Shown: positions 1-62,762, counted from the stretch's first letter. The stretch is 64,000 nucleotides of DNA from an uncultured Chthonomonadaceae bacterium (GCA_963835065.1 CAWIEK010000063.1:128001-192000); one strand, 5' to 3'. Translations and numbers: made by a program. Notes: generated by a model not told the origin, from the letters alone.

Positions 1-48
1 TTTCGCAGCCTTCAAGCAATCCTCACTCATGTCCTGCCACGTTGCCAC
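1..48 (-). CDS. 5' end of a probable HEPN-domain protein (runs off the window)
   Basis: GAGGGA RBS, then GTG; translates MATWQDMSEDCLKAAK, resembling the first helix of HEPN proteins. Only 16 codons are visible. Confidence 0.4.
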   Translation of the reverse strand, partial: MATWQDMSEDCLKAAK

Positions 49-70
49 CGCATTTCCCTCAGTTGATGTT

Positions 71-102
71 TAAAAAAGGCGCGTGAAACTGTTCACGCGC
101 CT
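71..102 (-). terminator. Intrinsic terminator downstream of the distal ppdK 3' copy
   Basis: Perfect stem AGGCGCGTGAA/TTCACGCGCCT (77-87, 92-102) followed by a T-run on the - strand. Confidence 0.75.
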
Positions 103-132
103 CTTTATTATACGCCCGGTTTGCAGGAATGT

Positions 133-330
133 CTACCTGTCGCGTTCGGTTCCGCTGTTGAGGGCGGCTTGGGCGGCCAGTCGGGCAATGGGGACGCGGA
201 AGGGCGAGCAACTGACGTAGTTGAGGCCGATCTTGTGGCAGAACTTCACGCTTTCCGGTTCGCCTCTATGCTCGCCGCAGATGCCTAACTTGATGTCGGG
301 ACGCACCTGCTTGGCCGACGCAACCGCCAT
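133..330 (-). pseudogene. ppdK: Duplicated 3' end of ppdK (distal copy, 198 bp)
   Basis: Aligns to 5701-5901 with a one-codon deletion, G>R in EHGGEP and several synonymous changes; homology stops abruptly at 330. Confidence 0.95.
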
Positions 331-474
331 AACAGGCTGCTTTCTCAATCGGGCATTCCTACGGTTCGTCCGTCACACGGTTGGCAAAAGGCCGTAGAAT
401 CCTTTTGGCGCGCATCAAAACTGTGGAACACAAACAAACGCGAATGGTTCGCGCCTGTTTTTGAGTCTGCTTTG

Positions 475-759
475 CTATGCCGCCTGCTTTTCCGGCGCTT
501 CAATTTCTTCCTGCGGGGCCATGAGCGACAGCAGAATGTTCAAATGCTGCTGATCTTGCAGTTCAATTTCTACATCGGCGAGCGTATCGTACAGTTCGAA
601 CGTCCGGGCGGGCCAGACATTGGGGCGCACGGGAACTTGCCACAACGTTTCCATTTTACGAACGCCCGCGTCCAGAACTTCAATGGTCGCGCCGCTCGGC
701 TGACGCCCTTCAAAGCGTTCGCGCACCATTTGCGCTACGGCTTCCGCGTTAATCTCCAT
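475..759 (-). CDS. Small acidic protein, putative partner/antitoxin of the upstream HEPN gene
   Basis: 94 aa ORF whose start overlaps the end of the HEPN fragment. Confidence 0.6.
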   Translation of the reverse strand: MEINAEAVAQMVRERFEGRQPSGATIEVLDAGVRKMETLWQVPVRPNVWPARTFELYDTLADVEIELQDQQHLNILLSLMAPQEEIEAPEKQAA

Positions 760-961
760 TGTCTTTTATCTCCAGAATGTCGAATACAAGCCGAACGTCA
801 TGGATTCTGTTGAGCGCTGTACGCCGGTCTACCAGAACCGCCGGACGATAATCCGCATTTTCGCGTTCGATACGGAGGCGGCGGAGCGCTTTGTTCAGTT
901 GATAACGCTTGCTGCGATGCAGGCTGGTATTGTTGAGTACCAAATCCGGCACTTGCTCATG
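749..961 (-). pseudogene. 5'-truncated HEPN-domain gene
   Basis: HEQVPDLV...LRRLRIERENADY carries the HEPN R-x-x-A-D-Y motif; there is no plausible N-terminal half or start before the stop of the next gene at 1008. Confidence 0.65.
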
Positions 962-1007
962 TTTGCCGAAATGTCTATAAACTGGAAGAGACGATCTTAT
1001 TGTTGTG

Positions 1008-1301
1008 CTATACCAGACAAAAATCCTTAAGAACCTTCGGAATGCCTTCCGTATCCCAAGCCGTTTCCACACAGACTCGCATTTCCACGTCAGGTAATGC
1101 CTCCAGGCGCAGACGTTGGAGCAGAGTTTCATCTATCACCTGCACGACCAATGGACAGCGTTTCTGAGTTCCATTGCGCAGGGTAAGCGTCATGACACAT
1201 CCGAGCCGTGCAGGAGTCCCTTCCACAATTCCTGTTGCTGTAACGCGATGCCAGGCCGTTTTGCGTCCCACCCGGTTCGCCGTAATTGTCTCACTGCTCA
1301 T
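1008..1301 (-). CDS. Hypothetical protein, paralogue of 2357-2722
   Basis: Shared motifs W.R.T.TG...G.P, V.DE.LL.RL, E.R.C.ET.W, LKDFC; ATGA overlap with the upstream gene. Confidence 0.8.
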   Translation of the reverse strand: MSSETITANRVGRKTAWHRVTATGIVEGTPARLGCVMTLTLRNGTQKRCPLVVQVIDETLLQRLRLEALPDVEMRVCVETAWDTEGIPKVLKDFCLV

Positions 1302-1855
1302 TGTTTGTTTCCTCTCCGAACTCTGACGTGATCTCTCGTTTCCAGTTGCAGCAGTCTCTCGTCTGGCGGTGGGCTGCCCGGAACCGGCAGCCCTGTTCCT
1401 CCTGTATCTATCTCTACGCCAGTCGCCAGGTGGAAAATAGCAATCTGATCACTCTCCAGCGCAAAATCTCGCGCTACACTCTCCTCATAAACCAGAACAG
1501 ATAGATCGAGAAAAAAGCTTTCTACCCCCTCATCGTTGATACCTTTCCATATTCCAATGCAGCAACGCGGGTGCTGCAGCAGGCTATAGTGCTTTTCAAT
1601 GAAGGCTTGCAGTTCCTCGGCAACGCTTTCTGCATCTGGATAGGCCGTTAGATCGTTGTCTAATCCAACCGCAAAGAACGGCTGGCTTATTTGATCACCG
1701 AAGTACAGGCTATAAGTTGCGCCCCCGCCGTTCTCAGGCTTCTCCAGAATTTCCAATATCTCATCAAGCGCCTTCGCGACTTCGCGCATATTCGGCAGGG
1801 AGGCAGAGACAGAAGAGAGGTATTCCAACAGGTTGTTCGCGCTCACCCCGGACAC
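1298..1855 (-). CDS. Hypothetical protein, paralogue of 2722-3255
   Basis: Shared GG.TYSLYFGDQ..QPF.AVGLDN, LL.HPRCC.GIW, D..VLVY.E..AR.FAL...QIA. Confidence 0.85.
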   Translation of the reverse strand: MSGVSANNLLEYLSSVSASLPNMREVAKALDEILEILEKPENGGGATYSLYFGDQISQPFFAVGLDNDLTAYPDAESVAEELQAFIEKHYSLLQHPRCCIGIWKGINDEGVESFFLDLSVLVYEESVARDFALESDQIAIFHLATGVEIDTGGTGLPVPGSPPPDERLLQLETRDHVRVRRGNKQ

Positions 1856-2027
1856 CGCCTTTTCATTCTACCTACAGGACAAATGTGTTTTGAATTAATT
1901 GGCGCATCGAACAACCAATTGTTGTAGATATTGTAGCATAGAATAGACAGACCGAACGAGGCACAAAGGGAAAATTGAATTTCCCCTCTGTGCCTTTGTG
2001 TCTCTAGCGTAGCGGGGGACTATGCGG

Positions 2028-2368
2028 CTATTTGTCCCGATGCGCGGTATCGCCAAGCGCGGCTTGGGCGGCGGCCAGTCGGGCAATGGGAACGCGGAAA
2101 GGAGAGCAGGACACGTAGTTGAGGCCGATCTTGTGGCAGAACTTCACGCTTTCCGGTTCGCCGCCATGCTCGCCGCAGATGCCCAACTTGATGTCGGGAC
2201 GCACCTGCTTGGCGCTTGCAACCGCCATCTGCATCAGCTTGCCCACGCCGGCTTGATCTACGGTGTCGAAGGGATCGGCAGCCAGGATTTTCTGCTCGAT
2301 GTAGGGCACGAGGAACTTGCCCGCATCATCACGGCTGAACCCAAACGTCATCTGCGTCAGGTCGTTGG
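2028..2368 (-). pseudogene. ppdK: Duplicated 3' end of ppdK (proximal copy, 341 bp) with alternative tail GDTAHRDK
   Basis: Colinear with 5701-6041; protein identical from MTFGF to AAQAAL with only synonymous changes; homology stops at 2368. Confidence 0.97.
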
Positions 2369-2722
2369 CTGCTTGTAAAGCAACTCAGGCGTTTCTGACG
2401 GCTCTATGCAGCAGAAATCCTTGAGTGTCGCGGCAACATCCGCTGTGTTCCAATCGGTTTCTATACAGGCGCGTATTTCAACGCCTACAGAAAGTTTCAT
2501 AAGCCGGAGCAACAGGTTTTCGTCCGTCACGCGCACTGCCTGCGAGAAGTGCCGGGTGACACCGCTTTGCGTTTGCCCAACCGCATGAAATGTCACGCAG
2601 GTAGGATTGCCCGGTGTGACGCCTGTAAGCGTCATGCGCTGCCAACGAGCGTTCGGCTTAGAGGACGTTACTGCCTGCTGTGTTTCTAAAATGGCGATGT
2701 CGTTGCTCATAATTCGCTCCAT
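2357..2722 (-). CDS. Hypothetical protein, paralogue of 1008-1301; stop codon supplied by the ppdK fragment
   Basis: Motif similarity; its last codons (CCA ACG ACC TGA) are read from ppdK-derived sequence in another frame. Confidence 0.8.
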
Positions 2723-3255
2723 TATTCCGGCTTGTCCTGCGTATCCAGTCGACGCAACCGCTCCAAACTGGATTCGCCTGTACCGCCGATTGCAATCTCC
2801 CCTGAACCGCCTTGTCGAAGATCGTACAAGGCGATCTGGTTTCCCCCGAGTGCAAATTCGCGCGCCCTTGCTTCATTGTACACCAGAACGGCAACATCTA
2901 TCCAGGCGGTTTCTACGCCATCCACATCTTTTGTTCGCCAGATACCAACACAGCAACGCGGGTGTGTCAGCAAATCACGACGCGCTTGCAGAAACCCGGT
3001 CAATGCTTCCGTCAGGGCTTCCGGTTCTGCTGTCCATGTGAAATTGTTGTCCAGACCCACAGCGTAAAAAGGCTGGCCGAATTGATCGCCGAAGTAAAGG
3101 CTGTAGGTCACTCCTCCATCCCGCTCAGGTTTGTTCAGAATAACTTGCATGTCTGCAACTGCCTGTATCGCCGCTTTCAACGCAGGCAACGATGGGGCAA
3201 CTTCGCTGAACAAGTATTCAAACAACGTTCCCGCAACGTTACCAGACATCCACAT
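2722..3255 (-). CDS. Hypothetical protein, paralogue of 1298-1855
   Basis: Motif similarity; stop/start coupled to both neighbours. Confidence 0.85.
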   Translation of the reverse strand: MWMSGNVAGTLFEYLFSEVAPSLPALKAAIQAVADMQVILNKPERDGGVTYSLYFGDQFGQPFYAVGLDNNFTWTAEPEALTEALTGFLQARRDLLTHPRCCVGIWRTKDVDGVETAWIDVAVLVYNEARAREFALGGNQIALYDLRQGGSGEIAIGGTGESSLERLRRLDTQDKPE

Positions 3256-3662
3256 TACCTCGTGACTCGTTGATGCGCCAGATCGAGAAGATGTTCCGAC
3301 TTGTCAATAAGCGCATCCGCCTGCTGGTCGCGCTGTGCCCTTATCTGCTCTTGAGCCATGCGCCCATTGAGCGCGCTCATTTCAATGCGAAGCGCGTCCA
3401 TACGCTTTTCTTCCGCGCGGCTGATCGTTCGCATCAAAGCCTTTTCTGTCAGCCGTTGATACTCCTGCCGCAGCGAAGCAAGGTTTTCCATTGCCTGAAA
3501 CTGTTGAACCATATCTTCGACTATTTGAGCAGGGGTGGTACTTCGCGCCTGCGCCATCTGTTCTAAAATGTGGTAAGTACGGGGCGTCAGTTCCAACCGC
3601 TCACCTGTTTGTGCCAACTCATTTTCTCCTGTTCCATTGGCGTTGCGCTTTCCTTCATCCAT
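3255..3662 (-). CDS. Hypothetical protein, ribbon-helix-helix-like N-part plus coiled coil (antitoxin-like)
   Basis: RLELTPRTYHILEQMAQARSTTPAQIVEDMV pattern; TAATG coupling to the next gene. Confidence 0.6.
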   Translation of the reverse strand: MDEGKRNANGTGENELAQTGERLELTPRTYHILEQMAQARSTTPAQIVEDMVQQFQAMENLASLRQEYQRLTEKALMRTISRAEEKRMDALRIEMSALNGRMAQEQIRAQRDQQADALIDKSEHLLDLAHQRVTR

Positions 3663-3722
3663 GTCAAAAAGAGGACGCGAACATTCTCGCCCTTCTCCAT
3701 TATACGCCCGTTTCGCTAAATC

Positions 3723-3944
3723 CTATGGTAACGGTTCAGAATCACAGAAAGCATCGAAAGCCTTTCCTGTTTCGATGTAAGCCGTAAATTCAATACTTTC
3801 CTGCTCGGACCAATCCATAGCCGCCAATATGCCGAAGAACTCCGTGACATCTACTTTGTCGTACCCCTCGCTCAATATAGCATCTGCCATCGTCTGAAAA
3901 TTAGTCGGTATCAACTCCTCATTCAACATCAGCCCCTTTTTCAT
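3723..3944 (-). CDS. Small acidic hypothetical protein
   Basis: 73 aa ORF with an AGGTAGG-like RBS upstream. Confidence 0.5.
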   Translation of the reverse strand: MKKGLMLNEELIPTNFQTMADAILSEGYDKVDVTEFFGILAAMDWSEQESIEFTAYIETGKAFDAFCDSEPLP

Positions 3945-4400
3945 AAGCCTACCTACCCTTACTGTAATTCGCTGCTACAACCACAGTCCAAATTTCGCAA
4001 CAAAAAGGTTCCTACTAAACTGCCTTATCCCCCCTGCGCCTTTGTACCTGACGTGAAAGAGTTGTAGATCAGCGGATTCGCAAAAGGCGAGACATGTCAA
4101 CTCTATTTTTGCATAACGGCACATTCAAACCATTTTGTTATCCATGCTTATTTATTGTAGACTGTCACAAGAGGCTCATCCTGACCATTGAACGATTTTG
4201 AACTGTTTTTTTCGACGTTTTCTGTCCATTGAAACTATGCAATCTGTTGGCATCCAAGATTTAGAAATATGGATTTCATGTCTCACTATATTTCTCGACG
4301 GTCAGCCGAACGGCAACGGACGTCTACTGCTATGCGCCTGTACGTTGTTACGTTTCGATTCAACGCTTGGTTTCAAGCGTTACGACAAAAGGAGAAGCAA

Positions 4401-4721
4401 TTGGTTACTAATCCCTGCACCCCTGCTTACTAGCTCAACCGCCTTCTCATCCTTTCCGCGCATGCGGCACAGCGTTGTAAAGAGCGCGGCCTGCCCCATC
4501 TGAATTATCTGCCAGCCAATGCTCGGCTCGTGGACACGGATGTGGACGTGCATGGACGACTGGAAGCGCTGACGTTCAAAGTTTTGGACGATGAGTGCCC
4601 CTTCTTCGTTGTGGTTTCGGTGAACGCAGTTGTCATCACGGTGTTCATAAACGAGGAACAGATGTTCGCCAAATCGCAGCGTCGCAAGCAGTACCGTAGA
4701 CGCTGCCGACAGATGGGCTAA
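4401..4721 (+). pseudogene. DUF4258/BrnT-like (RelE-fold) toxin-like gene interrupted by an in-frame TAG at 4431-4433
   Basis: AAGGAG RBS, then TTG at 4401; the frame continues past the TAG as LILSAHAAQRCKERGL...FVVVSVNAVVITVF. Confidence 0.6.
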
Positions 4722-4794
4722 AGCAACACAAAACATATCGTGAGTACAAGATCAGGCTGCTAGTGCAGTGCCTGATTTTTAAACGCCTTCACAC

Positions 4795-4830
4795 AAAGGC
4801 GCTTTGCACGGAGGGCAGCAAAGCGCCTTT
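4795..4830. terminator. Stem-loop between accessory genes
   Basis: AAAGGCGCTTTGC...GCAAAGCGCCTTT inverted repeat. Confidence 0.55.
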
Positions 4831-4863
4831 ATTGTGAGGCTCAGGTGAAAGGGCAATACGCAT

Positions 4864-5580
4864 ATGGAACAAAAATATGCTTTGTCAGCATACAAACCGA
4901 CGCACATCACCCCGCAACTTATTAAAACAGCCTATCACGAAGCCGGTCACGCGCTCGCCTGCGTGTGGCGTCGCTCACTGGTACAGCGCGTCACAGCAAT
5001 GCCACAGCCAGGCTCACGCGGGCATTGTCTGTATTCCATCAGCAACGCGACATCGCCGTTGGATCGCGTCAAGATGAGTCTGGCCGGAGCCATCGCCGCC
5101 CGCATTGCCACACAACCACAATGGTATCCTGTTCCGGGTTGGCGTCCCTCAGCGGAAGAGGGAGCAGGCGCAGATATGCAGGATGTATTCCAGTTTCTCC
5201 GAGAACACACAAGCGGTTCTTGTGTTTCGTGGAGTGACCGTAGCGCAGGGTTTTCAGAAAAGGAGGATGCCATACTTGATGGCCTCATTGCTGAAGTCTT
5301 CAAATGGCTGAGTGCCCCGGCGCGGCGGCAGGCGTTGGATGTGGTGGCGTCTCTGTTGATGGATCAAGGAACTCTGGTTATGCCATTGGTTAATCAGATC
5401 ATCCGCGACTCGATGACTTTTCCGTCACATCAAGGGTTCGTGTTTGCGCCTGATTTTAGCTATCGGCACTGGAAACGAATGGTTGAATTAGGTGGCGTGT
5501 ACGACCCGCGCCGCCGCGCCTGGTGGATTCCACCCTCACAAATCAACAGCCTTAACAATTTGAGGCGCAGGCAAGGATAG
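4864..5580 (+). CDS. Stand-alone FtsH/M41-like zinc metallopeptidase domain with a C-terminal DUF5710-like segment
   Basis: TAYHEAGHA, SLAGAIA and GAGAD motifs; C-terminal LGGVYDPRRRAWWIP. Confidence 0.7.
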   Translation: MEQKYALSAYKPTHITPQLIKTAYHEAGHALACVWRRSLVQRVTAMPQPGSRGHCLYSISNATSPLDRVKMSLAGAIAARIATQPQWYPVPGWRPSAEEGAGADMQDVFQFLREHTSGSCVSWSDRSAGFSEKEDAILDGLIAEVFKWLSAPARRQALDVVASLLMDQGTLVMPLVNQIIRDSMTFPSHQGFVFAPDFSYRHWKRMVELGGVYDPRRRAWWIPPSQINSLNNLRRRQG

Positions 5581-5651
5581 CACGTTTTGCAGAGATGCGC
5601 AAGAACCTGAACCTGTGCAATTTACTCATCCGCCCTCACGACACCTGCAAA

Positions 5652-5686
5652 CAACAACAGGCAGGGCTTATTTCTGCCTGTTGTTG
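5652..5686. terminator. Hairpin terminator between convergent ppdK and peptidase genes
   Basis: CAACAACAGGCAG/CTGCCTGTTGTTG 13 bp stem. Confidence 0.7.
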
Positions 5687-5700
5687 CATGAGTATAACAC

Positions 5701-8391
5701 CTACTTATCGCGTTCGGTTCCGCTGTTGAGGGCAGCCTGGGCAGCGGCCAGTCGGGCAATGGGAACGCGGAAGGGAGAGCAGGACACGTAGTTGAGGCCG
5801 ATCTTGTGGCAGAACTTCACGCTTTCCGGTTCGCCGCCATGCTCGCCGCAGATGCCCAACTTGATGTCGGGACGCACCTGCTTGGCGCTTGCCACCGCCA
5901 TCTGCATCAGTTTGCCCACGCCGGCTTGATCTACGGTGTCGAAGGGATCAGCGGCCAGGATTTTCTGCTCGATGTAGGGCACGAGGAACTTGCCCGCATC
6001 ATCACGGCTGAACCCAAACGTCATCTGCGTCAGGTCGTTGGTTCCGAACGAGAAGAAGGCCGCGTTGCCATTAGCCGGGTCTGCCAACTGATCGGCGACG
6101 AGGCAGGCGCGCGGGATTTCGATCATCGTGCCGAACATGTAGTCGAGTTCGACGCCCGCGTTGGCGATTACGTCGTTGGCGACCCGCTCCAGATTGCCAC
6201 GCACGGACTTGAGTTCGTTGACGTGGCCGACGAGCGGGATCATGATTTCGGGGTGAACGTCCTTGCCCCGCTTCTTCACGGCTGCCGCGCCCTGCAAAAT
6301 GGCGCGTACCTGCATTTCGACGATGCCGGGGAACACAATGGAAAGACGGCAGCCGCGCAGTCCCATCATTGGGTTTGCTTCGCGCATTCCCTCGACGGCT
6401 TGCAGCAGGGCTTCCTTCTTGTGCAGTTCCTCGCTGTCGCCCTTTGCCCGCAGTTCCGTCACCTGTACGAGCAGTTCGTCGTGGGAGGGCAGGAACTCGT
6501 GCAGGGGCGGGTCAATCAGGCGGATGGTGACGGGCTTGCCGTCCATGACCTCGAAGATGCCCTCGAAGTCCTTCTGTTGTATGGGCAGCAGCCGATCCAA
6601 GGCGTTTTTGCGGACGGCTTCATCCGTCGCCAGAATCATTTCCTGCACGATGGGCAGGCGATCCTGCTCGAAGAACATGTGTTCGGTGCGGCACAGGCCG
6701 ATGCCTTCCGCGCCCAGATCAAGCGCCTGCTGCGCGTCGCGGGGGTTGTCGGCATTGGTGCGGACGCCCATTTTACGGAAGCTGTCGGCCCATACCATCA
6801 GTTCGCTGAACGCGCCGGACACTTCGGGCGCGATCAGTTTCAGCGCGCCCACATAAACCGCGCCGCTGGAACCGTCCATCGTAATCGTGTCACCCTCGCG
6901 CACAACCACGTCGCCAACGGTCATGGTTTTAGCTTCGGCGCTCACTTTCAGGCTTTCCGCGCCCGCTACGCAGGGGATACCGAAGCCGCGCGCCACAACT
7001 GCGGCGTGACTGGTTTTGCCGCCCCGGGCGGTGAGGACGCCCTGCGCCGCGAGCATACCATGAACATCGTCGGGGTTGGTTTCGTCGCGGACGAGAATCA
7101 CTTTGCCGCCCGCGCCGCCGTGTACGCCCTGCAAAGCGGCGGTGTCGGCGTCAAAAACCGCTTTGCCGACGGCAGCGCCGGGAGAAGCCGCAAGCCCGGT
7201 CGCAATCTTTTTCGCGCTGTCGAGTACGGCGGGGTCAATGCGCGGGTGCAGCAGTTGGTCTACGTGCGAACCCGTGACGCGATTGACGGCCTCTTCTTTG
7301 GAAATCAAGCCCTCATGCACCATGTCAACCGCGATACGCACGGCAGCCGGCCCCGTGCGCTTGCCGGAACGACACTGGAGCATGAACAGTTTGTTGTGTT
7401 CAATGGTGAACTCAATGTCCTGCATGTCCTTGTAGTGGTCTTCCAGACGGTCGCAGGTTTCGATAAACTGCTTGTAAATTTGCGGGTTCTGCTGCTCCAA
7501 GTGGGAAATCGGAACCGGGGTGCGGACGCCGGCAACCACATCCTCGCCCTGCGCGTTCATCAGGTACTCGCCGAAAATGGCCTTTTCACCGGTAGAGGGG
7601 TCGCGGGTAAACGCAACGCCCGTGCCGCAATCGTCGCCCGCGTTGCCGTACACCATAGACTGGATGTTGACGGCTGTGCCGATGTCATCGGGGATTTTTT
7701 CGGTGCGGCGGTACACAATGGCGCGATCCGTATTCCAGGAACGGAACACGGCCTCAACCGCCAATTGCAGCTGCTCGTAAGGATCGGTGGGGAATTCGCG
7801 GCCCGCGTGTTCGCGGACATGGGCGAGGAACAGTTCCGAAACCTGCCGCAGGTCGTCGGCGTTGAGTTCGAGGTCGTCCGTGACGCCCTTCTTTTCTTTG
7901 TATTCCTTGAAGATGTGGTTGTCGAAATCGTGCTTGGACAGGCCGAACGCCACATCCGAAAGCATCATAATGAAGCGACGGTAGGCGTCGTAGACAAAGC
8001 GGGGGTTGTCGGTTTCTTTGATCAGGGCGTCAATTGTGGTGGGATTGAGGCCGAGATTAAGCACGGTGTCCATCATGCCGGGCATGGAAAACTTCGCGCC
8101 GGAGCGCACGGACACGAGCAGGGGTTTCGCGTCGCCGCCGAACTCGCGCTCCATTTGCTTTTCTACGGCGCGGATAGCCTCTTTGACGGCGGGCATCAGG
8201 TCGGCGGGAACCTGCTTGCCATTGGCGTAGTAGGCGTTGCAGGTGTCGGTGGTGATGGTGAAGCCGGGGGGTACGGGCAGGCCGATGTTGGTCATTTCGG
8301 CGAGGTTGGCGCCTTTGCCACCCAGCAGGTCGCGCATGGATTTGTCGCCCTCTGCAAACAGATAGACGCGCTTCGTTGCCACTGCGGTCAT
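5701..8391 (-). CDS. ppdK: Pyruvate, phosphate dikinase
   Basis: LLGGKGANLAEM, LLVSVRSGA, GGKTSHAAVVARG (phospho-His), [19 protein letters not shown]; 896 aa. Confidence 0.99.
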   Translation of the reverse strand: MTAVATKRVYLFAEGDKSMRDLLGGKGANLAEMTNIGLPVPPGFTITTDTCNAYYANGKQVPADLMPAVKEAIRAVEKQMEREFGGDAKPLLVSVRSGAKFSMPGMMDTVLNLGLNPTTIDALIKETDNPRFVYDAYRRFIMMLSDVAFGLSKHDFDNHIFKEYKEKKGVTDDLELNADDLRQVSELFLAHVREHAGREFPTDPYEQLQLAVEAVFRSWNTDRAIVYRRTEKIPDDIGTAVNIQSMVYGNAGDDCGTGVAFTRDPSTGEKAIFGEYLMNAQGEDVVAGVRTPVPISHLEQQNPQIYKQFIETCDRLEDHYKDMQDIEFTIEHNKLFMLQCRSGKRTGPAAVRIAVDMVHEGLISKEEAVNRVTGSHVDQLLHPRIDPAVLDSAKKIATGLAASPGAAVGKAVFDADTAALQGVHGGAGGKVILVRDETNPDDVHGMLAAQGVLTARGGKTSHAAVVARGFGIPCVAGAESLKVSAEAKTMTVGDVVVREGDTITMDGSSGAVYVGALKLIAPEVSGAFSELMVWADSFRKMGVRTNADNPRDAQQALDLGAEGIGLCRTEHMFFEQDRLPIVQEMILATDEAVRKNALDRLLPIQQKDFEGIFEVMDGKPVTIRLIDPPLHEFLPSHDELLVQVTELRAKGDSEELHKKEALLQAVEGMREANPMMGLRGCRLSIVFPGIVEMQVRAILQGAAAVKKRGKDVHPEIMIPLVGHVNELKSVRGNLERVANDVIANAGVELDYMFGTMIEIPRACLVADQLADPANGNAAFFSFGTNDLTQMTFGFSRDDAGKFLVPYIEQKILAADPFDTVDQAGVGKLMQMAVASAKQVRPDIKLGICGEHGGEPESVKFCHKIGLNYVSCSPFRVPIARLAAAQAALNSGTERDK

Positions 8392-8660: not shown

Positions 8661-9020
8661 TCATTTTGCCGCGCCCTGCAACAGAGCGGCGGCGCGTTGT
8701 CCTGCGGCGCGTACTTCGGCGTGGACAAGCCGCTCTATTTCCGCCTGCAATTCGGCGGGAACTTCCTGGTTGGCGTCCTGCGCTTCGCGCCATTGCGTCC
8801 TCAGTTCTTCGCGCCGTTGCTGTTCGGCAGTAAAGAAACGATCCGGGCGCTGCTTTTGCATCACGATAAGGGTAGCGGCGTTATCATCGTCTTCCAATTG
8901 CGGCGTCAGGGCGTCCAGAGCCTCCCCCATCGTGTTGCCTGATGCCTGCTTGTTGCCGGCGACAGCGTGATACGCTGTTTCAGACGCGCTATCGGTTACG
9001 GGTACAACAGCAATGACCAT
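8661..9020 (-). CDS. Antitoxin-like hypothetical protein (family usually found upstream of an HNH gene)
   Basis: YHAVAGNKQASGNTMGEALDAL...RPDRFFTAEQQ...AELQAEIERLVHAE; AGGAG RBS; family link is from recall. Confidence 0.65.
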   Translation of the reverse strand: MVIAVVPVTDSASETAYHAVAGNKQASGNTMGEALDALTPQLEDDDNAATLIVMQKQRPDRFFTAEQQRREELRTQWREAQDANQEVPAELQAEIERLVHAEVRAAGQRAAALLQGAAK

Positions 9021-9056
9021 ACATTTCTCCCTTGTTCGCTAGAGGTAGCAACATAC

Positions 9057-9871
9057 TTAAACAACCCACTTATTCTTGAGGGCGTTCTGCCCTATTTTGC
9101 TTGCAGCAGCTATGATCTTTGAACGATTCCGAGCCAGCCACGCTTCTAATTCTAAAAAGAGTTCGGCAGAAGGGAATTGGTTGATAATCTTCTCATAACC
9201 GCACATGCTTAAATTAACACTTATAAAAGCAGTTAAGCAAACAGCGCCCGTCAGCAGTCCCGGTGTCATCTCCTCCGAGAAGTGGTCAAATGTGTAACGG
9301 AATATCCTAATGTATACATCATGTTCGTACCCTTCTATTCCGATAAGGTAGGCGTATAAACCCTCCGTTCCCTGCTGAACTTGCTGTAAGACAATTGTTC
9401 TTCTAAGCCTAAAATAATCAAGCACATGAAATAGGCGGCGTATGCCATTCTGACAATAGGCTGCGAACCAGCATCATACGCTTCAATGTAGTTTGCAAGC
9501 GGCTCTGCTTGCAGCAATTTGCGCATTACTACGATTAGTTGAGTATCAAATGGCGTAGTGCCGGTGAATTCGTCGCCGCAAGAAACCTCGCCTCCCGCGC
9601 TACGCTTCATTTCTACGACGTAATCTCCACGCCTGAAACTTTCCCAAGACAAACTGTGCTGTTGCATCCCTTCTTCCATCAAATCTATAAGCCAGTGAGC
9701 AAACACTACATTTTCGGACGCAGCATATCTTGTCGCTTCCATGATTACCAGTGTTTCCTCGCGGTCAAGCCGGCTTGCTTCTGGTGTTTCCCTTCCTGTA
9801 TCGTGTTTTCGGTAAATTCTCTGCATGATGGTTTGCAGGTAATCATCGTTGCTCATGCTTGTAACCTTCAC
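9057..9871 (-). pseudogene. Low-GC hypothetical gene split by an apparent frameshift near 9425-9430
   Basis: ORFs 9335-9871 and 9057-9425 join as ...AAYFHVLDYFR... if one T is restored in TATTTC. Confidence 0.5.
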
Positions 9872-9901
9872 GATGTTGTGTCCGCACAGGGGGCTGCGAC
9901 T

Positions 9902-10240
9902 TTACACAAGATAAACGGCAACGCACAAGGCTTGCTCCACCTGATTTAGTGTAGCATCGGATACCTGTCCCATGCGTCGAACAAGCCTTGTCTTATCTAT
10001 GGCGCGGGCTTGATGGTAGAGAGCAACAGAGTCGCCGGTCAAGCCGCCTTCGCCTACCGCAACCTCTACACAGAAAGGATAGCCCGCCCAATTCAGATTG
10101 GACGTAAAAGGAACCACAACCGCAGTGCGCAAAAAGACGTTGAATGAATCGGCTTGCAGCACGAGAACGGGGCGCGTTCCCGCTTGCTCGGAACCTCGTG
10201 TCGGGTCCAGCGAGGCCATCCACAGTTCGCCGCGCTTCAT
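9902..10240 (-). CDS. mazF: PemK/MazF family endoribonuclease toxin
   Basis: MKRGELW..LDPTRGSEQAGTRPVLVLQ...VVVPFTS...DSVAL.HQARAIDKTRL. Confidence 0.93.
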   Translation of the reverse strand: MKRGELWMASLDPTRGSEQAGTRPVLVLQADSFNVFLRTAVVVPFTSNLNWAGYPFCVEVAVGEGGLTGDSVALYHQARAIDKTRLVRRMGQVSDATLNQVEQALCVAVYLV

Positions 10241-62723: not shown

Positions 62724-62762
62724 GGTCGATTCCTTTCCGTAATCGTTGTGTCGTTTTAATGG

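Follow-up and report, generated by a model that had tools for sequence, protein, structure and literature searches.

The window, a stretch of 64,000 nucleotides from a soil Armatimonadota bacterium, opens with an array of small genes and repeated gene ends that lies behind ppdK, a gene of sugar metabolism. Read along the minus strand, two cargo segments lie beyond intact ppdK, each closed by a repeated ppdK 3' end: cargo A by one of 341 nt (copy A) and cargo B by one of 198 nt (copy B), after which comes a terminator. This layout, proposed in the initial annotation of the sequence, was confirmed by ORF calls and alignments. The features are as follows, counted from the first nucleotide of the window:

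5701..8391, minus strand: intact ppdK, 896 aa, tail NSGTERDK (ORF call; Pfam PPDK_N, PEP-utilizers and PEP-utilizers_C)
5653..5685, minus strand: perfect hairpin, 15 nt past the ppdK stop (alignment; coordinates worked out from it by hand)
4864..5580, plus strand: cargo A, 238-aa ORF with an HExxH motif, convergent with ppdK (ORF call)
3723..3944, minus strand: cargo A, 73-aa ORF, no family matched
3255..3662, minus strand: cargo A, 135-aa ORF, no family matched; one paralogue on contig C37
2722..3255, minus strand: cargo A, 177-aa protein, gene 1 of an unnamed two-gene module
2357..2722, minus strand: cargo A, 121-aa protein, gene 2 of the unnamed two-gene module
2028..2368, minus strand: copy A, displaced ppdK 3' end, codon 784 to its own stop, tail LGDTAHRDK
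1298..1855, minus strand: cargo B, 185-aa protein of the same module family as the 177-aa protein (47% identity)
1008..1301, minus strand: cargo B, 97-aa partner protein (36% identity to the 121-aa protein)
749..1132, minus strand: cargo B, 127-aa HEPN-like protein (by likeness to the neighbouring ORF C63:127668-127874)
475..759, minus strand: cargo B, 94-aa partner of the 127-aa protein
133..330, minus strand: copy B, displaced ppdK 3' end, codon 831 to its own TAG stop, tail NSGTERDR
77..135, minus strand: ancestral post-stop region with a promoter-like site (135 to 107, 11/12 matches) and a hairpin with a T-run (77-102), both kept behind ppdK in the sister genome G002

Repeats this long and this identical cannot be due to chance. 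The core of copy A (2056-2368) is 97% identical to positions 5729-6041 over 313 nt, and its final ~28-35 nt, up to its own stop, are of a different allele; copy B is 90% identical to intact ppdK across 198-201 nt, with one 3-nt deletion. The initial annotation had also described copies that end at their own stops and begin abruptly at different sites within ppdK, and indeed both 5' starts are abrupt and fall at the two different codons listed above. The inserts measure 3.3 and 1.7 kb and the flanking repeats 313-341 and 198 nt, and the lower GC content attributed to the cargo was borne out (41-56% versus 55-66% in ppdK). Across the whole genome (an 8-Mb assembly of 71 contigs, 92% complete) the ppdK 3' end exists in only three copies, the two displaced ones included, which rules out the further fragments that had been expected to the left of position 1.

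The 238-aa ORF of cargo A matched Peptidase_M41 weakly (E 1.6e-4; 22 bits, under the Pfam cut-off of 29.9). At the other end of this cassette, the reading frame of the 121-aa protein crosses the junction and continues 12 nt into copy A, thereby giving the protein a C-terminal extension that is absent from three other family members; a break so close to the end of the last cargo gene is as would be expected of a non-homologous join. The two-gene module is rare and is present in both cassettes, which would not be expected of a process entirely blind to its cargo. For the 185-aa module protein of cargo B, we obtained a confident structure model (pLDDT 93), and none of the solved folds compared with it matched. 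The 127-aa protein gave no match in a Pfam search of its own and is read as HEPN-like only because the similar neighbouring ORF (51% over 69 aa) matches Pfam HEPN (E 3e-7); together with its 94-aa partner, it recurs in at least six further places in the genome. No methylase or restriction family was found among the window cassettes. As for the genes that leave the window past copy B, they had been taken for further cargo, a view that we do not uphold: they form a HEPN-type pair, and the same pair stands behind ppdK in G002, which carries no insert.

In G002, a sister genome of the same genus, ppdK is followed directly by the flank that adjoins copy B here. Copy B and ~80 nt past it align with the G002 ppdK end and its intergenic flank over 281 nt, versus 194 nt for the gene-proximal copy, whose alignment ends at the stop codon. 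Because the copy and its flank are both orthologous to the insert-free end and flank, the alignment marks the far copy as the original ppdK end. The last ~12 codons of intact ppdK, copy A and copy B are unlike one another, and the tail of copy A is closer to the G001 type; the three tails are different alleles. The distinct C-terminal allele in copy A fits a serial stack with the newest element nearest ppdK, and the last codons of intact ppdK probably arrived together with cassette A. Likewise, the hairpin at 5653..5685 is unlike the ancestral terminator and may be read as part of the imported DNA.

The differences between the copies show the codon profile of working genes. All nine differences between copy A and intact ppdK are third-position and synonymous, and those of copy B are spread 3/3/12 over codon positions 1/2/3. 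When 19 repeat pairs at 18 genes were pooled, positions 1/2/3 differed 38/37/133 times, so that 133/208 (64%) were third-position, with 126 synonymous versus 59 non-synonymous codons; among the working ppdK orthologues of three sister genomes the third-position share is 67-73%. Since the differences are mostly third-position, the ends are alleles of different lineages and not decayed self-copies. The match of copy B and its flank to G002, the allelic tails and the synonymous differences together support the earlier proposal that incoming DNA, carrying a ppdK 3' allele and cargo, displaces the older end. That the far copy is the native one is shown only for ppdK and acrB, because at galT (95.3 vs 92.2%) and DUF1501 (82.4 vs 79.7%) the gene-proximal copy is slightly closer to G002 than the far copy.

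A survey for the same pattern behind other core genes, as the initial annotation had recommended, found the scar at ~18 other genes of this genome, including recA, dnaA and acrB. Among its direct-repeat pairs, 22 are purely of the type in which the 3' end is repeated downstream, while 5 have the 5' end repeated upstream and 3 the 3' end repeated upstream. The cargo behind ppdK and the other scarred genes comprises toxin-antitoxin, restriction, defence or HNH genes.

The scar is also found behind ppdK of other Chthonomonadaceae and of Capsulimonadaceae. The relatives carry 0, 1, 2 or 3 downstream fragments with differing cargo. Such fragments occur at 3 of 4 relatives' ppdK loci and at 5 of 80 species-representative loci, where every one is C-terminal and lies downstream on the strand of ppdK. 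In Chthonomonadaceae, they start 198, 341, ~368, ~378, ~279, ~132 and ~408 nt upstream of the stop, and eight Capsulimonadaceae-type fragments start 87-136 nt upstream of it. We saw no junction common to two genomes, each fragment start being different. One fragment, in G023, shares no more than 74% identity with the ppdK of its genome, which is too divergent for simple RecA pairing in that region.

The array lacks a nearby recombinase gene. A genome-wide search with PF00589 and PF00239 gave six Phage_integrase (tyrosine) and two Resolvase (serine) matches, the nearest to the array being C63:45721-46161; the description of the array as integrase-free thus stands, with no tyrosine or serine recombinase within 82 kb. 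By Pfam searches of the window's cargo ORFs, neither the inserts nor the sequence beside them hold a transposase or integrase. Tyrosine and serine recombinases were likewise absent from five ppdK loci (75 ORFs), from 20 loci (150 ORFs) and from five Capsulimonadaceae-type loci (45 ORFs). No 8-10-mers were common to the 18 repeats beyond shuffle expectation. With respect to DNA uptake and end joining, ComEC was found and Ku was searched for and not found, which speaks for the recombination favored below; against it, DprA was not found in the 92% complete genome, and the sole recA is split across two frames in this assembly.

We therefore favor, with a probability of about 60%, the reading that the array consists of two stacked small foreign cassettes that were acquired from DNA of related bacteria by recombination in which a dedicated recombinase likely took no part, with an illegitimate join at the far side. 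The incoming DNA would carry its own ppdK 3' allele plus cargo, so that the older end would be shifted downstream at each insertion. One homologous crossover within ppdK, for which RecA is the presumed agent, would be accompanied by a presumably illegitimate, non-homologous joining of the donor's far end to ppdK 3' sequence of the recipient itself. Cassette B would have entered before cassette A, the donors probably being related lineages in both cases, and the persistence of cassettes between direct repeats might reflect cargo (toxin-antitoxin, restriction, defence) that punishes its loss or is selected. Far more tentatively, and as a distinctly unlikely extension, gene 3' ends in Armatimonadota, those of ppdK and of about twenty further genes, could be reusable docking sites for a recombinase-free, integron-like capture, in which addictive and defence cassettes accumulate newest-first, each with its own tail, and in which general recombination between the repeated tails would suffice to loop them out, reorder them and hand them from one lineage to another.

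An active role of the cargo would offer another route, whereby a cargo nuclease cuts a naive ppdK 3' region and repair copies in the cassette with a cleavage-resistant tail, displacing the native one. This nuclease-driven homing is unlikely but has points in its favor: HNH endonuclease genes with a small partner, resembling PtuB-type HNH nucleases, occur in 3 of 20 loci here (L021, L022, L032) and in the third slot of the G013 ppdK array, Capsulimonadaceae-type ppdK arrays hold restriction enzymes (PvuII-type, GmrSD; RM units in L054 and L061), imported ends diverge most at the extreme tail with several bringing a new stop codon, and the mitochondrial cases described in the relevant portions of PMC3630166 have an identical anatomy. 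However, neither window cassette holds a DNA nuclease recognisable with Pfam, PHROGs or PADLOC, the confident 185-aa model resembled no solved fold, RNase-type toxins, ATPase pairs or ordinary enzymes make up most of the cargo at other loci, and the fragment starts are scattered across ~300 nt. Alternatively, the ppdK fragment and its cargo might propagate themselves: recombination between the direct repeats would release them as a looped-out circle, or they would travel on a fragment-cargo-fragment piece, and a single crossover of the Campbell type would then bring them into a naive ppdK, the junction being made once and inherited thereafter. We regard this as quite improbable, given that no junction was seen to recur between genomes and all fragment starts differ, that an illegitimate event is still required for the first junction, and that the module family lacks flanking fragments at two long metagenome loci (L130, L131). 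Nevertheless, the anatomy is exactly that of insertion-duplication, and the 200-430 nt repeats with 90-99% identity are good substrates; such a life cycle was proposed by the Kobayashi group, with amplification shown experimentally, in the pertinent part of PMC2853133. On a 3.6-kb metagenome contig (~90% alike), parts of the two cassettes stand in a different order and the 177-aa gene is missing, although it is a single assembled record running through a repeat.

Both remaining explanations are highly improbable. A site-specific recombinase from elsewhere (an integrase in trans or a Xer-type enzyme) could act on a fixed core within the final ~87 nt of ppdK; the starts would then vary with how much ppdK-like sequence each element carries. 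The final ~87 nt are indeed common to all fragments in all genomes, leaving room for a hidden core, and integrase-driven islands that restore gene 3' ends are well known; yet ~30 arrays or loci contain no recombinase gene in or beside them, the genome has only eight site-specific recombinases versus at least 18 different target genes, and the repeats share no motif. The array could also be an artefact of mis-assembled strain haplotypes, or have arisen in situ by local tandem duplication of the ppdK end and module with later divergence. The uncultured-type assembly in 71 contigs, frameshifted genes such as recA, several exact head-to-tail duplications in the genome and the module common to both cassettes would suit such an origin. 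It is countered by the same architecture in relatives with 1-5 contigs (G001, G013, G023) and in chromosome-level records (L051, L054, L055), by differing copy lengths and unique flanks, by module proteins only 47% and 36% identical as opposed to 90-97% for the ppdK pieces, and by a copy A tail unlike both neighbours.

The acquisition by homologous crossover and illegitimate joining that we favor resembles several known systems. Homology-facilitated illegitimate recombination and Campbell-type insertion-duplication belong to the laboratory genetics of transformable bacteria, in which recipient DNA is usually deleted. The ppdK array would share with the former one homologous anchor and a non-homologous join, with the latter the single crossover of a piece bearing one chromosomal fragment, and with both an insert beside a duplicated stretch that needs no site-specific recombinase; unlike them, it is natural and recurrent, and the gene is always kept whole. 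As in integrase islands and integrons, sequence borne by the element makes the target gene whole again, and small promoter-proximal cassettes accrete in tandem, but the junctions here are variable. An integron was rejected, as there is no integrase and the cassette boundaries are ppdK ends and not a common attC-like element; an integrase-driven island is likewise disfavored, since neither this array and its surroundings nor the relatives' arrays contain a tyrosine or serine recombinase gene. No att-type motif was common to the target genes, although the last 87 nt of ppdK leave room for a core. Rhs/CDI polymorphic toxins form C-terminal displacement arrays in which a variable C-terminal toxin domain is paired with an immunity gene, and two such loci (L031, L038) are present in this genome. 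Stacked displaced 3' ends, small partner genes and, presumably, a newest element adjoining the main gene are common to these and the ppdK array; an assignment to this class was nonetheless discarded, as ppdK is a metabolic enzyme with three enzyme domains, its tail is no toxin domain and the cargo genes are no immunity genes to it.

The scar itself is an 'insertion with long target duplication', which has already been published for restriction-modification genes (PMC2853133) and for the endonuclease ORFs that fungal mitochondria carry (PMC3630166), and the novelty implied by the initial annotation is accordingly not retained. According to the relevant portions of the latter source, which cites the original Allomyces paper, mobile endonuclease ORFs insert a foreign C-terminus and displace the native one (Allomyces atp6; Glomus atp6, atp9, cox2 and nad3). 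An intact hybrid gene with an imported C-terminus, and a native C-terminus behind the insert that matches a sister species, are seen in both settings; the ppdK array differs in its window cassettes without a recognisable endonuclease, its bacterial chromosome, its varied cargo and its several layers. For restriction-modification units, the corresponding sections of Furuta, Abe and Kobayashi 2010 (PMC2853133), which cite Nobusato et al. 2000, describe inserts of <20 kb between direct repeats of host sequence of >30 bp, with observed repeats of 46-423 bp, often spanning a stop or start codon, and one lone HNH gene among the inserts. To the extent covered by these sections, the ppdK array agrees in its small accessory units, its long direct repeats of variable length, a relative with an empty site and the repeat sequence present once (here G002), the lack of a transposase or integrase, and the RM cargo of Capsulimonadaceae-type arrays. 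A true duplication of a single target was rejected, the tails being different alleles with synonymous, third-position differences; compared with the described units, the ppdK repeats are thus alleles of different lineages and not a copied target, the window cargo consists of unnamed two-gene modules and a HEPN-like pair in place of an RM system, and the stack comprises two inserts in this genome and three in relatives.

Alignment within the locus confirmed the two displaced ppdK 3' ends of the initial annotation, which are 341 and 198 nt long and begin abruptly at different positions inside the gene. The array, for which genes were called with a home-made codon-usage caller, comprises the following features:

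5701-8391, minus strand: intact ppdK (pyruvate phosphate dikinase), 896 aa, with all three Pfam domains
Between intact ppdK and copy A, downstream of ppdK: cargo A, 3.3 kb
2028-2368, minus strand: copy A, a 341-nt ppdK 3' end with an abrupt start in codon 784
Between copy A and copy B, downstream of copy A: cargo B, 1.7 kb
133-330, minus strand: copy B, a 198-nt ppdK 3' end with an abrupt start at codon 831
77-102: hairpin with a T-run, behind copy B

Copy A is 97% identical to intact ppdK over 313 nt, while the final ~28-35 nt leading to its own stop codon have diverged; copy B is 90% identical and carries a 3-nt deletion. The cargo is indeed lower in GC, as had been suspected (41-56% versus 55-66% in ppdK). 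Further ppdK fragments had been expected to the left of position 1, and none was found, with only these three copies present in the whole 8.0-Mb assembly.

All nine differences between copy A and intact ppdK are synonymous third-position changes, and those of copy B fall on codon positions 1, 2 and 3 as 3/3/12. Pooling 19 intact/displaced pairs at 18 genes of the source genome gave 38/37/133, with 126 synonymous versus 59 non-synonymous codons; a single pair, at a xylose-isomerase-like gene, ran contrary to this trend (2/15/9), perhaps through an offset in frame or alignment. At 64%, the third-position share of the pooled pairs is far higher than the ~45% that we ourselves estimate for one freely decaying copy, and close to the 67-73% between the working ppdK genes of three sister genomes. 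Given this excess, most of the divergence accrued in working genes of different lineages, and this shows the duplicated ends to be imported alleles and not copied targets. This confines the mechanism to recombination that is anchored by homology and involves related donors; the same test can be used on any scar of this kind.

The scar itself, 'insertion with long target duplication', is known from restriction-modification units of many bacteria (PMC2853133, where Nobusato et al. 2000 is cited). That paper reports repeats of 46-423 bp, often across the stop or start codon, the absence of mobility genes, a single HNH gene found alone in such a scar, and a mechanism that is unknown. How toxin-antitoxin, restriction and other small defence units move from chromosome to chromosome without a recombinase of their own has been a standing question since that description. 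The structure behind ppdK is set apart from a literal target duplication by the divergence gained in working genes. A keyword literature search, which does not in itself demonstrate absence, returned no housekeeping gene behind which arrays with cargo other than restriction-modification genes are stacked, and no precedent closer than PMC2853133 and PMC3630166.

The initial annotation proposed that an incoming ppdK 3' allele with its cargo displaces the older end downstream, and a flank match in a relative, the allelic tails and the codon test together support this. In G002, a relative from the same genus, ppdK has a short flank and then a HEPN-type pair directly behind it, representing a site without an insert. 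Together with the ~80 nt that follow it, in which a promoter-like site and the terminator lie, copy B aligns to the G002 ppdK end and flank over 281 nt, compared to 194 nt for the gene-proximal copy, the alignment of which ends at the stop codon. Because the alignment of copy B continues past the stop into the flank, this copy is the original ppdK end, now 5.4 kb away from the gene. The C-terminal tails of the three copies aligned as different alleles: the type of intact ppdK and copy B is also present in G002, and the copy A tail is of another type, nearer to the relative G001. The simplest history would be that cassette B arrived first with a copy-A-type tail, followed by cassette A with the present tail. 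The same synteny test in G001 and G002 gave a result like that of ppdK for acrB, the flank of the far copy being the one kept in G002, and no clear assignment of the native copy for galT and DUF1501. As a side observation, the promoter-like stretch 92-124 behind the ancestral ppdK stop resembles 3684-3716 (79% over 33 nt), which immediately precedes the 135-aa gene in cassette A, and one metagenome contig joins a ppdK stop directly to position 3691; both hint that 3692-5700 might be a later arrival. G002 has no downstream ppdK fragment but carries an inverted 103-nt copy of the tail and terminator ~1 kb upstream of ppdK (locus L018, 11857-11959), with 92% identity to copy B and its flank.

The ppdK end was matched in 37 of 41 genomes of the order, and the loci of four relatives were examined. 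Apart from G002, these carried a VapBC-type pair and, behind it, a ppdK fragment of 369 nt (G001), three fragments of decreasing length with cargo that includes IS3 and an HNH pair (G013), and one fragment (G023). Extra C-terminal ppdK fragments were also found at 5 of 80 species-representative loci (~30 of the 80 from Armatimonadota), all in Capsulimonadaceae-type records, downstream and on the same strand, with at most three per locus. The starts of these fragments lie between 87 and 136 nt ahead of the stop codon, and their cargo comprises restriction-modification, GmrSD, ATPase-pair, XisH/XisI, PIN and HEPN genes. G023 has a second ppdK 3' fragment of 600 nt (aa 675-878; locus L140, 7416-8128) ~110 kb from its ppdK, with 94.7% identity to the intact gene. 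The flank downstream of it (L140, 8812-9285) is 87% identical to that behind the G023 ppdK array, and the two sites share a stretch of 1.2 kb at 100% identity.

The same pattern recurs behind other core genes, for which the initial annotation had suggested a survey. Self-comparison of the genome (direct repeats of 80-900 nt, at least 80% identity, at most 15 kb apart) yielded 130 local pairs, 22 of which fall purely into the class where a real gene has its 3' end repeated downstream; the corresponding counts were 3 (3' end upstream), 5 (5' end upstream) and 4 (5' end downstream). End-anchored short matches (score of at least 40) for all 4,833 long genes pointed in the same direction, with 42 (3' end downstream), 24 (3' end upstream), 15 (5' end upstream) and 9 (5' end downstream), in a scan that is noisy from tandem paralogues and large duplications. 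Among 20 annotated loci, two were Rhs or SUKH-type toxin loci, where the pattern is expected, and 18 involved other host genes, including recA, dnaA, acrB, galT, lactate permease, a KdpD-type sensor, an M16 peptidase, a subtilase and a DEAD helicase. Repeat identity stops at the stop codon or a few codons earlier, and several new tails use a different stop codon. Apart from HNH genes with a small partner, the cargo at these loci consists of PIN, ParE and Gp49/HTH pairs, AAA_21 with DUF4276 pairs, and pieces of methylases and IS elements. A recurrent pair adjoins displaced gene ends at four loci (L021:1682-2067, L022:1874-2637, L032:1740-2569, L015:8055-8905); its first gene encodes a protein of 57-112 aa and its second an HNH nuclease of 160-180 aa, resembling PtuB from Septu, in which the HNH is N-terminal. 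The only recA of the genome lies in two reading frames (contig C54, 62385-63171, locus L032), split near 62737-62741 so that Pfam RecA positions 1-145 and 144-262 fall in different frames, and its displaced 3' end is located 6.5 kb downstream; the split may stem from an indel in the assembly or from a genuine frameshift, which bears on any RecA-based model.

The description of the array as integrase-free held up as well. Site-specific recombinase matches in the whole genome numbered 6 tyrosine and 2 serine enzymes, the nearest of which is 82 kb away from the array; the 64-kb window contains none. Recombinase domains were likewise absent from 75 ORFs around ppdK (left flank of the source genome plus the four relatives), from 150 ORFs at 20 further loci and from 45 ORFs of five Capsulimonadaceae-type arrays. 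The sole mobility genes among these loci were IS transposase pieces, in some of them; since IS200 or IS4/5 pieces sit inside the cargo (e.g. L036 at C68:81000-88000 and L020 on C8), the cassettes also gather insertion sequences. No 8-10-mer was common to the repeats of the 18 target genes above shuffled sequence, and a shared att or dif-like motif was accordingly rejected. A diversity-generating retroelement, considered for repeat pairs of 110-135 nt like the one at the lactate permease locus, was also rejected because the differences there are third-position (1/1/8) and the cargo lacks reverse transcriptase.

Both cassettes contain a two-gene module (177 + 121 aa in A, 185 + 97 aa in B; 47% and 36% identity) without a family in Pfam, PHROGs or PADLOC. 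The model predicted for the 185-aa protein is confident (pLDDT 93), with no solved relative in Foldseek at E <= 0.001 and a best Z of 4.3 in a wide structural search. Atlas matches for the cargo were confined to unnamed, mostly viral clusters (0.90-0.92). The unnamed 177-206-aa family (1298-1855 and 2722-3255; L120:1025-1567; L121:1183-1803) has an invariant PRCC..G.W plus GGTG pattern, always has a partner of ~100 aa ending in LKDF directly after it, and matched weakly a hypothetical protein from Rhodococcus phage E3, with no match to plasmids. The reading frame of the 121-aa gene crosses the junction into copy A, producing a tail absent from its three relatives; the join therefore cut the extreme end of that gene. 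Cassette B additionally harbors a HEPN-like pair, named solely through a neighbouring paralogue, and cassette A a HExxH protein and two small ORFs. The label 'toxin-antitoxin-like' fits by size and pairing, and as a function it is putative only. Accessory small genes also occur upstream of ppdK (8661-10240), including a MazF/PemK toxin (9902-10240) and an ORF with an 80% identical paralogue on contig C47.

We favor a homology-anchored, recombinase-free insertion behind ppdK, a reading drawn from sequence to which we assign a probability of roughly 0.6. Homology-facilitated illegitimate recombination (HFIR) and Campbell insertion-duplication are known precedents. DNA from a related lineage would pair with the recipient ppdK and bring in the donor ppdK end with the genes that follow it; the far end of the donor DNA, lacking homology, would enter the ppdK 3' region of the recipient by a non-homologous join, and this region would persist as a displaced fragment. 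The route might be HFIR-type strand invasion, a looped-out unit that enters by a Campbell-type crossover, or the repair of a break made by a nuclease. The preference for 3' ends would arise because only inserts that leave the gene whole are viable, and the cargo spectrum because only cargo that punishes its loss or is under selection would last between direct repeats.

That nuclease homing placed the cargo is unlikely, yet worth weighing: fungal mitochondria show the same anatomy as the ppdK array, driven there by endonuclease ORFs according to PMC3630166, and HNH genes with a small partner occur at 3 of the 20 loci. A unit that propagates itself is a still weaker candidate. The module is present in five copies in the genome, and a 21-codon repeat of the host gene's end flanks another of these (C54); the family is rare, with only 10 loci in the metagenome collection, mostly short; flanking gene fragments were not seen at the two long ones (L130, L131), and L124 is apparently a palindromic assembly. 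As a driver of insertion, the 177/185-aa module was rejected. A hidden site-specific enzyme is very improbable, the ORFs around the arrays being free of recombinase domains and the repeats sharing no motif. We give equally little credence to an artefact or in-situ duplication, against which stand the ppdK fragments in relatives and the differing tail allele of copy A. No sequencing run contains the stretch, and 8% of its words occur in two metagenome runs, the contigs of which are mainly ppdK of other organisms plus one rearranged relative, the uncovered parts being uninformative.

Recombinase-free insertion could be studied here in a rich natural series, with ~18 scarred genes including the essential dnaA and recA, a sister genome with an empty site, and ppdK hit repeatedly in two families in stacks up to three deep. 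For annotators, short 'pseudogene' tails behind core genes are marks of insertion history.

Six stretches of the source genome, 1.1-5.3 kb long, are also duplicated in exact head-to-tail tandem (98.3-99.7% identity), either as real recent events or as assembly artefacts:

C12:67267-77834; C37:154696-160353; C41:109882-116750
C41:163419-173689; C44:386723-394145; C30:36232-38431

In addition, C53:449200-468200 carries ~7 repeats of 0.6-0.9 kb with 81-89% identity, spaced roughly 2-3.5 kb apart.
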